Origin: Nitrospinaceae bacterium
GTDB taxonomy: Bacteria > Nitrospinota > Nitrospinia > Nitrospinales > Nitrospinaceae
Reading direction: 5' to 3'
Assembly: GCA_965223665.1 (NCBI GenBank)
Contig: OZ245011.1
Location: forward strand, 3,328,001 to 3,392,000
Length of the DNA: 64,000 nucleotides
In this document: positions 7,742 through 17,248 of the stretch, in pieces
How the letters are laid out: every line of letters begins with the position of its first letter
How positions within the stretch are numbered: position 1 is the first letter of the stretch
Made by a program: the position numbers and the translations under genes
Notes under the pieces: generated by a model
What the model saw: the letters and a program-made list of their open reading frames with translations, nothing else
Told to the model about the DNA's origin: nothing
The model's database searches: none

Positions 7742-9556
7742 ATGAAAATCCTATTAATTTTTCCGCCAGATTGGCTTCCTTCGGAACCCTACCTGAGTTT
7801 ACCGGCTTTGACATCAGTATTGCGACCTGCAGGCCATGAAGTTGTCCAAAAAGACATCAATGTTGAGATGTATGACTTAATGTTTAGCGAGAAATTTTTG
7901 CGACATGTGCAAAAACGAATTCATTTTGAATTGAGGCATTTGCAAATTCAAGCCGATCGACAAGGACTTGATGAAGAAGAACGAGAGCTGAAAAACGCTC
8001 TCGAAATGCAAACTGAGGAAATTTTTGTTGAACTTATTGCCAGTGTGAAAGAAGCCAAACGAATACTTAAAACGGAAGATTTTTTCGAAATTGAAAAATT
8101 AGAATGGGCTACAAGTACTCTACACCATGTAATGTCGGTGATTTCTCTAGGATATTATCCTGCACAAATTTGTTTTCCTCCTATTGAAACGGATTTGGTT
8201 TACAAGCCTTTTATGTCTACTGAAATAATAGAGGCTCTTGAAGATAATCAGATCAATGTTTACCGTGACGTTTATCGATTTTTGTTAGAGGACCTAATTG
8301 CTGAAGAAAAGCCAGATGTTGTGGGGATATCTGTAGTCCAGCAAAAACAGCTAATTCCTACCTTTACTTTTTGCAAATTAATCAAGGAGCAAATGCCAAA
8401 TACCCATATCACTTTGGGTGGAAATATCATTACACGCATACGCGATGTAATGGTGGGAAAGGATAATTTATTTGAACTTTTTGATACCGCGGTTCTGTAT
8501 GAGGGTGAGAGTGCTTTTTTAAAATTGATTGAATCCTTGGAAAGAGGTGAAACGGATTTTTCTCAAATGCCTAATTTGATGTACAAAGGGGCTAATGGAA
8601 TACAGGTGAATAAAGAAGTACTTTCCGAAAATATGGATCAATTACCACCCCCGGATTTTGACGGCTTGCCTTTAGACAAATATTTTGTTCCGAGATTGAT
8701 CCTTCCCTATTTGGCAACTCGCGGTTGTTATTGGGGAAAATGTACGTTCTGTGATCACTTTCAGGGTTATGTGGAGGGCTATCGTACTAAGCAAATTGCT
8801 CAGATCACAGAAGAAATTCGTTTTTTAAAAAATAAATATGGCAACCGTTATTTTCATTTTACTGATGAATCCTATCCACCCGCGTTATTTCGAAAATTAT
8901 CCCGTTCGTTAATTGACAATAAAGTAGATATTGCCTGGACGACTCATATGCGATTCGAGGAAACTCTGCTTGATGATGAAGTGTGGAAAGATGCACAAGA
9001 ATCTGGCTGTCGATACTTACATTTTGGTTATGAATCGGGAAATGAACGCGTACTAAAGCTAATGGACAAAGCAACTCATTTAGATGCGATTCGTACTAAT
9101 TTAGCAATGTCTGCTAAGCATGGAATTTGGAATCACATTATGGGGTTTTTCGGTTTTCCAGGGGAAACCTCCGAGGAAGCAGAGGATAGTAAAAAGTTTG
9201 TTCATGAAAATCGTCAAAATGTCCATTCTTTAGGTTTTATGACCTTTGTCCTGGGTAAATATAGTCCAATTGCCATGGAACCCGAAAAGTATGGAGTGAA
9301 TGCTTATAAAAACCCTGAATGGGACTTGGCATTAGATTACTATTTTACTGTTGATGAAGGATTAAATATTCAAGAGGCGTTAGATGTATTTGAAGAGTTC
9401 GAACGCAATCACGATGGAAAATGGGATTTAAGAACTTGTGTGCGGGAATATATTTTCCTCTATGTGGATCATTTCGGGACTAATGATCTCAAACAACTCC
9501 ATATCCAACCTCACCAACGTCCAGAAATTTACAACAACCCAGTTGGCATGGTTTAG
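7742..9556 (+). CDS. B12-binding domain radical SAM protein
   Basis: N-terminal cobalamin-binding-like region (PYLSLPAL, PDVVGIS, ITLGG, YEGE); RGCYWGKCTFC cluster motif; FTDE and GYESG. Confidence 0.9.
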   Translation: MKILLIFPPDWLPSEPYLSLPALTSVLRPAGHEVVQKDINVEMYDLMFSEKFLRHVQKRIHFELRHLQIQADRQGLDEEERELKNALEMQTEEIFVELIASVKEAKRILKTEDFFEIEKLEWATSTLHHVMSVISLGYYPAQICFPPIETDLVYKPFMSTEIIEALEDNQINVYRDVYRFLLEDLIAEEKPDVVGISVVQQKQLIPTFTFCKLIKEQMPNTHITLGGNIITRIRDVMVGKDNLFELFDTAVLYEGESAFLKLIESLERGETDFSQMPNLMYKGANGIQVNKEVLSENMDQLPPPDFDGLPLDKYFVPRLILPYLATRGCYWGKCTFCDHFQGYVEGYRTKQIAQITEEIRFLKNKYGNRYFHFTDESYPPALFRKLSRSLIDNKVDIAWTTHMRFEETLLDDEVWKDAQESGCRYLHFGYESGNERVLKLMDKATHLDAIRTNLAMSAKHGIWNHIMGFFGFPGETSEEAEDSKKFVHENRQNVHSLGFMTFVLGKYSPIAMEPEKYGVNAYKNPEWDLALDYYFTVDEGLNIQEALDVFEEFERNHDGKWDLRTCVREYIFLYVDHFGTNDLKQLHIQPHQRPEIYNNPVGMV

Positions 9557-13621: not shown

Positions 13622-14389
13622 ATGGGTTTTTGGAAATCAAATTGGAATCGCCGATTTTTTTTGAAAGCGTCTTCTTTATCTTTGGCAAGTTTTTTGTTTC
13701 CAAAGAAAGGTGGGGGAACAGTTAATTTTCAAAATAATAAAAATATACCTTCCAACTATATACAAAACCGCGACACCCCGGGATTCTATATTCGAAGTGC
13801 AAACCCTTTTTTAGGAGTTGATATTAATAAATGGTCTTTGGGAATTAAGGGGATTGTGAAACAGCCTTTAACTTTGGGTTATGAAGATTTATTTGGATTT
13901 CCCAGAGTTTCTCAAGTATCGCGGTTAAAATGTGTGGAATGTTGGTCTGCCAAGGCGGAGTGGGAAGGATTTCGTTTCCAAGAGATTGTAAAGCGGGTGC
14001 AACCGGACCCAAAGGCTAAATATGTAACTTTTCAATCTGCTGACTCTTATTATGAAAGTTTTCTTTTGGAAGAGTTGTTGAGACCCAGAGTTTTATTTGT
14101 ATTGCGAATGAATGGAAAGCCTCTATCAAAAGATCATGGGTTTCCTTTAAGGCTTATTGCTCCTTTTAAGTATGGATACAAAAATGTTAAATATATTACA
14201 AGTATAGAGTTTTCAGAAAAACGTAGCCGAAATTATTGGGCAGACTATGGACCTTATTCAGTGGATGGAACGATTCAACCGGGAATTGATCATCCTCTGG
14301 ATTATAAGAAAAAACCCTTACCTATTAATGGAGGAGAGGTCTTCCATTTTTTCGATAAACGCCCTCCCAAATCTCCAAATGGCATATGA
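13622..14389 (+). CDS. Tat-exported molybdopterin-dependent oxidoreductase (sulfite oxidase/MsrP-YedY family)
   Basis: NRRFFLK twin-arginine motif; LKCVECWSAKAEWEG; HGFPLRLIAPFKYGYKNVK. Confidence 0.85.
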   Translation: MGFWKSNWNRRFFLKASSLSLASFLFPKKGGGTVNFQNNKNIPSNYIQNRDTPGFYIRSANPFLGVDINKWSLGIKGIVKQPLTLGYEDLFGFPRVSQVSRLKCVECWSAKAEWEGFRFQEIVKRVQPDPKAKYVTFQSADSYYESFLLEELLRPRVLFVLRMNGKPLSKDHGFPLRLIAPFKYGYKNVKYITSIEFSEKRSRNYWADYGPYSVDGTIQPGIDHPLDYKKKPLPINGGEVFHFFDKRPPKSPNGI

Positions 14390-15111
14390 ATCCATGGCGA
14401 AAACTATTTTCGTTAATCGTTTTTTTATTTTTTTGTTCCTGTTCTGATAACTCAGTCGAACAAATTTCTGTAAAAATTCCCCCTAACTTAAAAGTTCCTG
14501 AAGAAATGGTTTACATTCCTGAAGGCGAATTTGTATATGGTCATCCTAGCGATCCTAAAACAAGTTTAGGAAAAAAAGTTCATTTGCCAGCTTACTTCAT
14601 TGACAAGTTTGAAGTGACCCGTGGAGATTATCAAACAGCAAACACAAAGTATTGGGTCACTCCGGGCAAGGAACTTTTCCCAGTAAATTTAGTTAGCTTT
14701 TTAGAAGCGAGTACTTATTGCCAATCTTTGGGTAAACGGTTGCCGACAGAAAAAGAATGGGAAAAGGCGGCTCGAGGGATAGATGCCAGAAAATGGCCTT
14801 GGAAGCAGTTTCAAGAGCATCCTAATAATGGATTTTCAGGATTTATTCCTGAACCGGTGGATAAAAGGGATGATTGGATCAGCCCATATGGTATTTATGG
14901 AATGGGACATAATGTTTGGGAATGGACTGTGGATGATTATGATTTTAATGGGATGCCAGGAACTGAAAAAGGTAAATATAAAGTCATCCGTGGAGGGCTT
15001 TTTCAATCCCACTTAACAATAAAATTCTCTGCGACTTGGGCTAGAAATTATATGGAACCGCAAGCACGTTATAATTTTTTGGGATTTAGATGTGCTAAGG
15101 ATCTTGATTGA
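14386..15111 (+). CDS. FGE-sulfatase (SUMF1/PvdO-like) domain lipoprotein
   Basis: IDKFEVT, KRLPTEKEWEKAARG, NVWEW, GFRC; signal peptide with Cys; ATGA overlap with the upstream gene. Confidence 0.85.
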   Translation: MNPWRKLFSLIVFLFFCSCSDNSVEQISVKIPPNLKVPEEMVYIPEGEFVYGHPSDPKTSLGKKVHLPAYFIDKFEVTRGDYQTANTKYWVTPGKELFPVNLVSFLEASTYCQSLGKRLPTEKEWEKAARGIDARKWPWKQFQEHPNNGFSGFIPEPVDKRDDWISPYGIYGMGHNVWEWTVDDYDFNGMPGTEKGKYKVIRGGLFQSHLTIKFSATWARNYMEPQARYNFLGFRCAKDLD

Positions 15112-15191
15112 GGAAAAAATCTTTGTAAACTTTCTATCAGATGCTTTTTAGAAAGAACTCACTGTCATTATTTCTTTTTAAAAATTCCAAT

Positions 15192-15225
15192 AAAAAAAGG
15201 GCTGCCAAAACATTTGGCAGCCCTT
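15192..15225 (-). terminator. Intrinsic terminator
   Basis: Perfect inverted repeat AAGGGCTGCCAAA/TTTGGCAGCCCTT followed by T7 on the minus strand. Confidence 0.85.
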
Positions 15226-15255
15226 AGAAAACTATGGAACCTCCGGGAAACTGAA

Positions 15256-15300
15256 TTAACAATTTCCTACGGAGGTTCCAAGTCTACAATCGCTAGACAA
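15256..15300 (-). CDS. Putative 14-aa peptide MSSDCRLGTSVGNC
   Basis: TTG start 7 nt after the GGAGG core of an extended Shine-Dalgarno; TAA at 15256-15258. Confidence 0.35.
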   Translation of the reverse strand: MSSDCRLGTSVGNC

Positions 15301-15596
15301 TGGATCACCTCCTTTCATCCAGGGGGTGAACATCCGCGCCGAGACTCCCCTGGCGCCCCAAACGCTTCACTATAATTAGCTATAGATTGTACTATTTTTT
15401 TGAAAAAGTCAAAATGGAAAATTTAGCCAGGTGGCCCATTGGATCTAGTGAGATATCTATTTGATTTCTATCGAGAACTAACAAATTAAATCTTAATGTT
15501 GCGGTGTGATTTTTCCAAATTTTGGTGTTTTTTGTAGAGCAAATTTTTTATTAATTGGATCCTTTAGTTTTTTGCAATTTCCCCAAAAATTGAATT

Positions 15597-15893
15597 TTAA
15601 TAAATCTTCTTGTTTTTTCTTTTTTTGTAAAAAGCTTTTTGACATTCGGCTGAACAATATTTTGCGGCACGATGTCTGGGATGAAATTCCTTTTCACAAA
15701 CCACACAGAACTTGTTATAAAATTTTTGTTTGGGTTGTCTGGGTTTAGCATCTCGCATTTTGGTAATCGTGCGTAAACCTTTTATCGTAGATTTTTGTTG
15801 GAGGAAATTTAGTTTTTCTTTTTCCAGGTCTCTATACTTTAAAACTTTTTTTAATTTGCCGTTTTTATCATAGACTTTACACTCATAAATCAT
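15597..15893 (-). CDS. Small basic zinc-finger-like protein
   Basis: CVVC-x11-CSAEC motif, very Lys/Arg-rich, GGTGA SD-like element 7 nt upstream. Confidence 0.7.
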   Translation of the reverse strand: MIYECKVYDKNGKLKKVLKYRDLEKEKLNFLQQKSTIKGLRTITKMRDAKPRQPKQKFYNKFCVVCEKEFHPRHRAAKYCSAECQKAFYKKRKNKKIY

Positions 15894-16291: not shown

Positions 16292-17248
16292 TTGGAAAAA
16301 GAATTAACAAGAGAAAATGATTTAGAGCTTCCTATTCGCGAGTTTTCTCGAATTACTGGAGTGAGCCCTCATACTTTACGCATTTGGGAGCGTCGCTACG
16401 GTGTTCCTAAAACAAGGAGACTGCCTTCCGGACATCGTAGGTATTTAAGAGAGGAAATTCCCCGGATAAAAGCTGTTGCTTGTGCTTTAGACGCTGGGTA
16501 CCGTCCGGGAAAAATAATTCACGCCTCCCTTCAAGAATTAGAAGATTTAATTAATGTTTCTTCGTTAATTCATTCGGTCAAAAAGCCTGCGGTTGATTCA
16601 AACAGAATAAGGGACTTTAGTATTCTCGATAAATGGATGAATGCGGTTCGAAAATATAATGAAGATTTATTGAGTCAAGAGTTTCATTATCAATGGCAAA
16701 AGATGGGGCCACTAAATTTTGTTCAGGATTGTATAACTCCTTTTATCTACCGTGTGGGTCTTGAGTGGGAAACTGGGGAATTATCTATTTCGCAGGAGCA
16801 TTTTGTTTCTGCCAGGCTCGGGGATTTTTTGGGAACCATGTGGCGAAAACTCAATGAAAGAAACCAGGGACCTGTGTGTGTGTTGGCGAATTTGCCTGAT
16901 GAGCCTCATTCATTGGGTTTGCAAATGGCCGCAGTTTTAGCGGCTTTAAATCAAAAAAAAGTAGTTTTTTTAGGAAGAGATACTCCTGTTGAGGATATTA
17001 TTTTCGCCGTTGAACAATGTAATGCTGAACTTTTAGGAATTAGCATTTCATGTATTTATGATGCCAAAACGGCACGAATCCAGCTAAAAAAACTACGGCA
17101 AAAAATTTCTCAGGATTGCAATATAATTGTCGGTGGGGAAGGTGCTCAGTGTCCAATTCCAGGGATTTTAAAAATGCAAAATTTATCCGAGTTTTTTAAC
17201 TGGCTTCAAGAGACTGGTAAAACAGGGGAGAAGGCTTATGAAAACTAA
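16292..17248 (+). CDS. MerR-family cobalamin-binding regulator (CarH/LitR-like)
   Basis: RIWERRYG and GHRRY in the HTH; W-x9-EH (WETGELSISQEH) and E-x-H-x2-G (EPHSLG) B12 motifs; VGG. Confidence 0.9.
   Translation: MEKELTRENDLELPIREFSRITGVSPHTLRIWERRYGVPKTRRLPSGHRRYLREEIPRIKAVACALDAGYRPGKIIHASLQELEDLINVSSLIHSVKKPAVDSNRIRDFSILDKWMNAVRKYNEDLLSQEFHYQWQKMGPLNFVQDCITPFIYRVGLEWETGELSISQEHFVSARLGDFLGTMWRKLNERNQGPVCVLANLPDEPHSLGLQMAAVLAALNQKKVVFLGRDTPVEDIIFAVEQCNAELLGISISCIYDAKTARIQLKKLRQKISQDCNIIVGGEGAQCPIPGILKMQNLSEFFNWLQETGKTGEKAYEN

Follow-up and report, generated by a model that had tools for sequence, protein, structure and literature searches.

Ribosome-regulated expression (rre) RNAs, small mRNAs named rreB and rreR (Hahn et al. 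2016, RNA Biol 14:1353, PMC5711450), are the closest described counterpart of the locus dealt with here, which spans about 185 nt of the minus strand in what we call the window, i.e., the whole 64,000-nt stretch of DNA analysed, from a Nitrospinaceae bacterium (GenBank assembly GCA_965223665.1, contig OZ245011.1, positions 3,328,001 to 3,392,000 of the forward strand). Read directly from the sequence, the unit occupies window positions 15187-15412. The portions of the rre report on which we draw describe rreB, found in Bradyrhizobiaceae, as an mRNA of 165 nt in which 17 nt are complementary to the 3′ end of the 16S rRNA and precede a GTG-initiated open reading frame (ORF) of 14 codons; rreR is the 18-codon counterpart in Rhodobacterales. 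According to these portions, rreB co-sediments with 30S subunits, it is weakly translated owing to both the extended Shine–Dalgarno (SD) sequence and the GTG, and destruction of its start codon lengthens its half-life from 10 to 37 min. Within the same portions, rre analogues are reported in four alphaproteobacterial orders only (Caulobacterales, Rhizobiales, Rhodobacterales and Rhodospirillales), and the authors call the function elusive (PMC5711450). Our search of the literature available without subscription brought up no functional follow-up on rre; the class is represented there by one experimental report (PMC5711450) and by three papers citing it that, judged by author names, come from the same laboratory, and it is confined to Alphaproteobacteria in them.

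Judged by its sequence, the locus in the window matches the rre class. The initial annotation of this DNA had put it forward as an undescribed system, which cannot be upheld, since RNAs of this kind were published in 2016; what is new is the host lineage, the TTG start codon and a pseudoknot domain at the 5′ end. We consider it likely, with a probability of roughly 0.7, that the locus is a stand-alone rre-type small mRNA whose main partner is the 30S ribosomal subunit. As to the host, a two-piece transfer-messenger RNA (tmRNA) is a mark of Alphaproteobacteria. The genome carries a one-piece tmRNA (202 bits), and the alpha-type two-piece form was not found in it (in controls, that model matches Caulobacter only); the host is therefore not an alphaproteobacterium and lies outside the published host range of rre.

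The minus-strand unit and its predicted pairing with the 16S rRNA

The predicted parts of the unit are given below in window positions, in the order in which they would be transcribed, with the source of the assignment in brackets where one applies.

15407-15412, minus strand: −35 box TTGACT (sequence)
15384-15391, minus strand: −10 region, either TACAAT (15391-15386) with a 15-nt spacer or CAATCT with a 17-nt spacer (sequence)
15336-15365, minus strand: 5′ hairpin P1, whose arms are 15355-15365 and 15336-15345 and whose G-rich loop, GCCAGGGGA, occupies 15346-15354 (RNAalifold)
15319-15330, minus strand: C-rich tract UUCACCCCCUGG, partner of the P1 loop in the pseudoknot or else of the SD (anti-SD mimic)
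15301-15316, minus strand: super-Shine–Dalgarno GAAAGGAGGUGAUCCA, 16 nt, complement of the entire single-stranded 16S rRNA 3′ tail
15256-15300, minus strand: ORF MSSDCRLGTSVGNC of 14 codons, TTG start at 15300-15298 and TAA stop at 15258-15256 (sequence)
15235-15280, minus strand: hairpin H2, with an outer stem of 11 bp and an inner stem of 8 bp, spanning codons 7-14, the stop codon in its apical loop
15187-15225, minus strand: intrinsic terminator, a 13-bp stem (15225-15197) followed by a U-run (terminator scan)

The complement to the 16S rRNA, the centrepiece of the initial annotation, is real. At 15301-15316, the plus strand reads TGGATCACCTCCTTTC and the minus strand therefore GAAAGGAGGTGATCCA, which is a perfect complement, at 16/16 nt, of the genome's own 16S rRNA end, ...GCGGCTGGATCACCTCCTTTCT (also given as ...GCGGCUGGAUCACCUCCUUUCU). 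As had been stated, no further ribosomal sequence accompanies it: in the Rfam scan around the locus, only these 16 nt match rRNA. When up to two mismatches are allowed, the 16-mer has one match in the window against 0.02 expected, and 2/100 shuffles reach one match. In the whole 4.35-Mb genome the 13-mer core AAGGAGGTGATCC occurs twice, at the locus and at the 16S end, so that the search outside ribosomal operons that had been suggested leads to this locus alone. A chance match is excluded. The computed energy of the duplex between the super-SD and the 16S tail is −30.4 kcal/mol, as compared to −9.2 kcal/mol for AGGAGG alone. Pairing stops at the A that precedes the TTG, where the next 16S base, a C, opposes a U; at the opposite end of the complement, relatives with AGAAAGG gain a 17th pair.

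Folding of the minus-strand RNA yields −85.7 kcal/mol (z = −7.1; 0/200 shuffles as low) and the opposite strand folds well too (z = −9.0), and since fold energy is strong on both strands, the transcribed one must be judged by other evidence. Both the U-run of the terminator and the −35 box lie on the minus strand, and 85 of the 832 paired cells of the comparative structure are G-U (hand tally), a wobble that would turn into a C-A mismatch on the plus strand. Based on these three features, the RNA appears to be read from the minus strand.

The initial annotation had already recorded the promoter-like TTGACT-N15-TACAAT and the 13-bp terminator, and both are present as listed; our automatic promoter scan, which allowed spacers of 16-18 nt only, for that reason did not list the former. 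CAATCT-like words at 17-nt spacing were seen again, by eye, in relatives. Among 50 homologues analysed closely (30 from the BLAST set considered below and 20 fetched additionally), TTGAC[AT] lies upstream in 38, mostly 91-107 nt 5′ of AGGAGG, and a terminator-like hairpin with a T-run is found in 47. From these conserved signals we infer a stand-alone transcript with its own sigma-70-like promoter and terminator.

Conservation of the element across the order

By BLAST, the element was detected in 31 of 41 relatives, belonging to four families. A covariance model, R1, built from 28 sequences (alignment A2), matches in 86 of 102 genomes of the host's order, in 48/51 of those that are at least 90% complete and in 20/22 genera, with one copy in each genome that has it, two excepted. 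In the remaining genomes of the phylum R1 has no match (0/18), and one-mismatch pattern matches in those 18 resemble ordinary genes or chance. The element would thus be a near-universal single-copy gene of the order. Two full-length R1 matches occur only in G059 (contigs C115 and C135) and G093 (C134 and C202), the assemblies of which are fragmented (320 and 220 contigs, respectively); these may represent real duplications or mixed strains.

Pairing with the 16S tail is kept in all 50 homologues, over 14-17 pairs, with duplex energies (computed against the tail of the genome studied here rather than their own) between −24.9 and −31.1 kcal/mol and a median of −28.8. The core 12-mer is changed in five of them, and in 4/5 a G-U wobble retains the pairing.

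The overall structure has 87.3% of its cells paired in the alignment versus 78.3% in shuffles (0/500 as high). It beats all 500 column shuffles, in paired cells as well as in covariation score, and every slid version of itself, with two-sided changes in 16/30 pairs of the whole. In P1, two-sided changes affect 11/12 pairs, and 83% of cells are paired. Its loop, GCCAGGGGA, can pair with the C-rich tract UCACCCCCUGG just 5′ of the SD in an H-type pseudoknot with 88.7% of cells paired; an A-U pair is exchanged for C-G in five sequences, and matched variants recur in added genera (CAGGGGAA/UUCCCUG and UCAGGGA/UCCCUGA). The same tract can pair with the SD instead (UCACCcCCU with AGGaGGUGA), at a duplex energy of −11.9 kcal/mol against −15.0 kcal/mol for the pseudoknot. 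The pseudoknot is the stronger of the two in 42/49 sequences, a rough figure, since the loop finder picked the wrong G-run in about seven sequences (L010, L028, L032 and L212-L215).

H2 is formed by the perfect 11-bp outer stem UGGAACCUCCG/CGGAGGUUCCA and the inner stem GGAAAUUG/CAGUUUCC; 90.6% of its cells are paired and two-sided changes occur in 4/11 outer pairs. The stop codon lies inside its apical loop in 40/50 homologues (39 computed, and L221 by hand). In one homologue from a complete genome (L206, G024:C1:1721450-1721900), SD, ORF, H2 and terminator are kept, while an unrelated sequence takes the place of the 5′ domain with its hairpin and pseudoknot; R1 scores this homologue at 46.6 bits, the scores elsewhere being 59-140 bits.

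Compared with these conserved helices, the pairings proposed in the initial annotation fared unequally. The 11-bp stem with the stop codon in its loop stands, and the other ORF hairpin, GTCTA/TAGAC, is seen only in this genus (2/28 rows of A2, by eye), as is GTGAA/TTCAC. From the set of mutually exclusive upstream pairings, CCAGGGG/CCCCUGG survives as the stem of the pseudoknot, in which role it is not a rival of P1, and GCGCC/GGCGC proves to be a register found in this genome only; in its conserved form P1 joins 15355-15365 to 15336-15345. The broader check that had been called for, conservation of the extended SD and the hairpins in sister taxa, came out positive with R1 and the 50 homologues. 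By comparison, selection appears to act on three features of the reading frame and its entry site, namely pairing with the 16S rRNA, presence of a start codon and length of the ORF, whose stop lies in a loop, and on three structures, namely P1, pseudoknot and H2.

The conserved tract UCACCCCCU is similar to the 16S anti-SD, and the RNA could on that account be a trans-acting base-pairing small RNA that blocks the SDs of other mRNAs. This we hold to be highly improbable: the tract is engaged in the pseudoknot, it becomes UUCCCUG jointly with its partner in genera g6 and g22, and such a function leaves the super-SD, the start codon and the ORF length unexplained.

The TTG-initiated ORF of 14 codons was correctly annotated, and its start codon stands at the same place in 50/50 homologues (TTG in 34, ATG in 15 and GTG in one). 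The ORF has 13 codons in four of them, 14 in 41, 15 in four and 18 in one, i.e., 13-15 codons in 49/50, and it ends in any of the three stop codons. This constancy, the recurring N-terminal M-S-S/N, the recurring G-A-S in the middle, the ATG starts (15/50) and the terminal Cys (26/50) would suit a gene of the usual kind that encodes a functional micropeptide of 14 residues, with the super-SD serving just to get a short structured mRNA translated. The substitutions speak against it. Summed column entropy over codons 3-7 of the TTG type amounts to 3.21, 4.73 and 4.76 for codon positions 1, 2 and 3, that is, an excess at third positions is absent, and the second codon is TCT in 29/29 distinct TTG-type rows, with no synonymous variant. 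The recurring G-A-S falls on the 5′ arm of H2; the change from GCU to ACC in this genome is matched by a change in the 3′ arm. One homologue (L204, G027:C29:108140-108590) has an extra G in the ORF (UGGGGGAGC) that causes a frameshift, giving 18 codons and a different C-terminal half, with H2 intact; the insertion is either tolerated, which would argue against a role for the peptide, or an assembly error. The RreB and RreR peptides are, in the portions of the report cited above, unstructured, and putative RreB overproduction was without influence on growth (PMC5711450). We regard the micropeptide gene as unlikely: the peptide appears to lack a coding-type substitution pattern, and its sequence does not seem to be among the selected parts. 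The two-Cys micropeptide suggested at the outset is weakened further by the Cys at codon 5, which is not conserved, and the accompanying question, whether peptide or structure is conserved, is answered in favour of the structure.

The initial annotation had also thought of a sponge for GGA-binding proteins. Locally this is possible: the genome encodes CsrA (86 bits), there are two GGA motifs in CUGGAUGAAAGGAGG, where the SD and the GGAUGA just upstream of it would be the binding site, and more GGA occurs in H2. The best two GGA motifs are just 8 nt apart, however, GGAUGA is changed to CUGAGA in g6/g22, and binding of CsrA needs no 14-17 contiguous pairs with the 16S rRNA; moreover, RNAs of the same kind occur in Alphaproteobacteria, and our control search found no CsrA in Caulobacter, which carries such an RNA (CC2171). 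A sponge or target of CsrA or a similar protein is, in our view, very unlikely.

As regards the genomic neighbourhood, the next gene downstream (14386-15111), FGE-sulfatase-like, is convergent, and the genes downstream of the element in relatives (encoding a histidine kinase, GatC, a pyrophosphatase, a FliG_N-like protein and others) lie in either direction; the upstream genes vary as well. A tiny ORF followed by a hairpin and a terminator resembles an attenuator, and the plus strand reads as a 16S 3′ end, so that one might think of the leader or attenuator of a downstream gene or of a relic of an rRNA operon. Since the downstream genes vary in kind and direction, the element is not the leader of a particular gene; the regulated same-strand gene that an attenuator needs downstream is absent, the next gene being convergent and those of the relatives unrelated. 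A relic sits badly with just 16 nt matching rRNA and with a structured single copy kept in 86/102 genomes. Either origin is scarcely credible.

Some neighbouring genes deserve mention in their own right. HflX acts on ribosomes. In genus g9 (L026, L027 and L033), the element lies directly 3′ of a gene for an HflX-type GTPase (GTP-bdg_N, GTP-bdg_M and MMR_HSR1; domains from L026), a linkage limited to that genus. In the window, a very basic 98-residue ORF (15597-15893, minus strand) with CxxC...CxxxC near its C-terminus (CVVCEKEF...YCSAECQ) is located upstream of the element, in the same orientation and at a distance of 184 nt from the −35 box, and is conserved in the sister genome; its sole Pfam match, Ecl1 at 22.9 bits, is under the cut-off. 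The terminator scan found no terminator-like site between this ORF and the element, and read-through from the one into the other may occur. Further away are a MerR-type helix-turn-helix fused to B12-binding domains (16292-17248, plus strand), which we take to be the domain arrangement of CarH-like regulators that depend on light or B12, and a gene for a B12-binding radical SAM protein (7742-9556).

Proposed working of the RNA

The initial annotation had offered, amongst its readings, a ribosome-binding RNA or a switchable mRNA, and this part is supported in so far as it fits the conserved super-SD, start codon, ORF length and hairpins, as well as the analogy with rreB. We envisage the following course of events. 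The RNA would be transcribed from its own sigma-70-like promoter and end at its own terminator, as the conserved signals suggest. In the nascent transcript P1 would form first, and its G-rich loop would capture the C-rich tract as a pseudoknot, a structure that covariation supports. The tract, which all but copies the 16S anti-SD, would in this way be kept from the real SD, which would stay open; should the pseudoknot fail, the tract could possibly mask the SD. The super-SD would then pair with the whole free 16S tail (at about −30 kcal/mol) and tether the 30S subunit, as it does in rreB of Bradyrhizobium. Initiation would be rare, held back by the excessive length of the SD helix and by the weakness of TTG as a start, by analogy with rreB and its GTG. 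A ribosome that does initiate would read the 14 codons, melt H2, stop in the loop and expose the RNA to decay. Binding and initiation would count for more than the peptide, and the RNA would act as a ribosome-coupled regulatory RNA or as a “parking” RNA for free 30S subunits, with its level reporting initiation capacity.

Several points weigh against an rre-type RNA that works in this manner. Binding to 30S, weak translation and decay were measured in rreB and are carried over from that single alphaproteobacterial study, while the locus in the window offers sequence and computed energies, those of the relatives referring to a 16S tail that is not their own. In the portions of the same study cited here, 20-fold overproduction of the ribosome-binding RNA left growth unchanged (PMC5711450), which makes sequestration unlikely as a major function. 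Starts with ATG or GTG, found in 16/50 homologues (genera g6, g22 and g7), argue for more translation in some lineages, and the 26/50 peptides that end in Cys, along with G-A-S at codons 8-10, which by our reading is present in most, would fit a peptide that matters. A gating role for the pseudoknot is the more conjectural component: the SD-masking helix has 85.7% of its cells paired, a value that does not set it apart from shuffles (209/500), and no covariation support, it is weak in g6/g22, where the tract reads UUCCCUG, and in L206 the 5′ domain is missing entirely.

A more far-reaching proposal starts from the 16S tail itself. 3′ exonucleases attack 30S subunits from the end of that tail, and this suggests a possible role in capping or checking the tail, the boldest of our readings. 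The rre RNAs might be old, multi-phylum “30S caps” that pair with all free bases of the 16S tail and hold idle subunits protected and ready for initiation, for example by leaving no single-stranded end to 3′-to-5′ exonucleases, or that check whether the tail is mature. Rare initiation on the tiny ORF would eject and destroy the RNA, and in this order a pseudoknot gate would have been added, the G-rich decoy loop and the anti-SD mimic deciding co-transcriptionally whether a transcript is born open or closed. This remains a speculative proposal to which we assign a low, if appreciable, probability.

Whichever function applies, rre RNAs belong to a very small number of cellular RNAs under selection for pairing with the whole mRNA-docking tail of the ribosome. 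The 50-sequence comparison puts names to the parts that appear to be selected (16S pairing, start codon, ORF length, stop in a hairpin loop and 5′ pseudoknot, with the peptide sequence excluded), and turns the vague rre puzzle into specific mutants to make.

Look-alikes in other phyla and described systems

A scan of species genomes for the word made up by SD and start returned at least 117 loci, at least 110 of which have an ORF of 10-27 codons. It recovered the rreB type (MSxxKRCHLAGIAR, 14 codons) and the rreR type (MSRxVLExGVGT..., 18 codons). Among the 80 matches listed with titles, eight are from Gemmatimonadota, two from Gammaproteobacteria and one from a metagenome-assembled genome of Planctomycetaceae; the others listed bear alphaproteobacterial or unspecific titles (Pseudomonadota/proteobacterium), save one from Saprospiraceae, which holds an ordinary 135-codon gene. 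The rre-like units outside Alphaproteobacteria, in each of which a super-SD is followed by a start and an ORF of 10-26 codons, are the following.

Gemmatimonadota: L035, L040, L045, L047, L051, L063, L106 and L114
Gammaproteobacteria: L048 and L110
Planctomycetaceae: L057
Untitled: L128

Several copies from Gemmatimonadota and Gammaproteobacteria open with NUG-UCU-AGU-GA (M-S-S-D/E), as in the host order, UCU and the codons after it thus being constant as nucleotides across phyla, and a CCACCCUG-like tract is found 8-10 nt before the SD in several of those from Gemmatimonadota. R1, applied to 100 of the at least 117 loci (from Alphaproteobacteria, Gemmatimonadota and others), scored 25.8 bits or less. 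The aligned part comprises no more than the SD and the first codons, so that common descent with the units of other phyla is not shown. The same design is near-universal in an unrelated order and has look-alikes among Gemmatimonadota and in certain Gammaproteobacteria, which speaks for a basic function tied to the ribosome and against the peculiarity of one lineage.

As the initial annotation had proposed an Rfam scan, we note that no family matches the locus at gathering thresholds. The best relation is to RF01867 (CC2171), with 34.7 bits (E 2e-5) against a gathering score of 75, its only match in the genome. CC2171 is a Caulobacter small RNA the function of which is not identified in the portion of the source consulted (bioRxiv 10.1101/2022.01.24.477521). 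The RF01867 model has as its 5′ consensus this very super-SD, with a start codon and UCU after it, and closes with a terminator; at the locus the score stays far under 75, and only the SD-start end and the terminator end align. RF01867 is above threshold only for loci of the Bosea (88.5 bits) and Roseiarcus (82.9 bits) type, whereas an rreB-type locus (49.4), an rreR-type locus (38.4) and the Sphingomonas type (41.4) score in the same sub-threshold range as the window; RF01867 would thus represent one subfamily of the rre class, and the locus in the window would belong to the class and not to RF01867. Two other candidates from the scan at E up to 10 were dismissed: suhB/mmgR (25.1 bits), which covers the terminator alone, and SAM-II (15.1 bits, E 3.5), at chance level.

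Amongst more distant systems, 6S RNA, an abundant small RNA, binds the RNA polymerase holoenzyme, mimics an open promoter and is released when used as template. It shares with our candidate the principle of imitating the nucleic acid that a core machine naturally binds, of holding that machine and of being released upon use, and differs in its target: the RNA considered here would bind 30S, as an over-perfect ribosome-binding site. SD/anti-SD switches, such as RNA thermometers and riboswitch platforms, likewise have a C-rich tract that pairs with the SD or with a G-rich decoy upstream. The decoy here sits in a hairpin loop, as part of an H-type pseudoknot, and the SD-masking state is without covariation support; neither a ligand-type conserved core nor an Rfam aptamer was found at the locus.

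The comparison with rreB and rreR remains the closest. The differences are that the host is not an alphaproteobacterium, that the start codon is TTG instead of GTG, that the complement ends one base before the start codon, whereas the published ones include the first base of it, and that the encoded peptide is unrelated. In addition, a hairpin–pseudoknot domain with an anti-SD-like tract precedes the SD, where the alphaproteobacterial copies that we inspected have a CA-rich tract (…caacaa…) and no such domain. Given its predicted promoter and terminator, the unit in the window would, like rreB and rreR, be transcribed on its own, at a size in the range of about 165-185 nt. What they have in common is a perfect complement of 16-17 nt to the whole free tail of the organism's own 16S rRNA, with the canonical SD within it; a non-ATG start directly after that complement, an ORF of 14 (rreB) or 18 (rreR) codons and a conserved fold downstream; and a genomic context that is unconserved between lineages.

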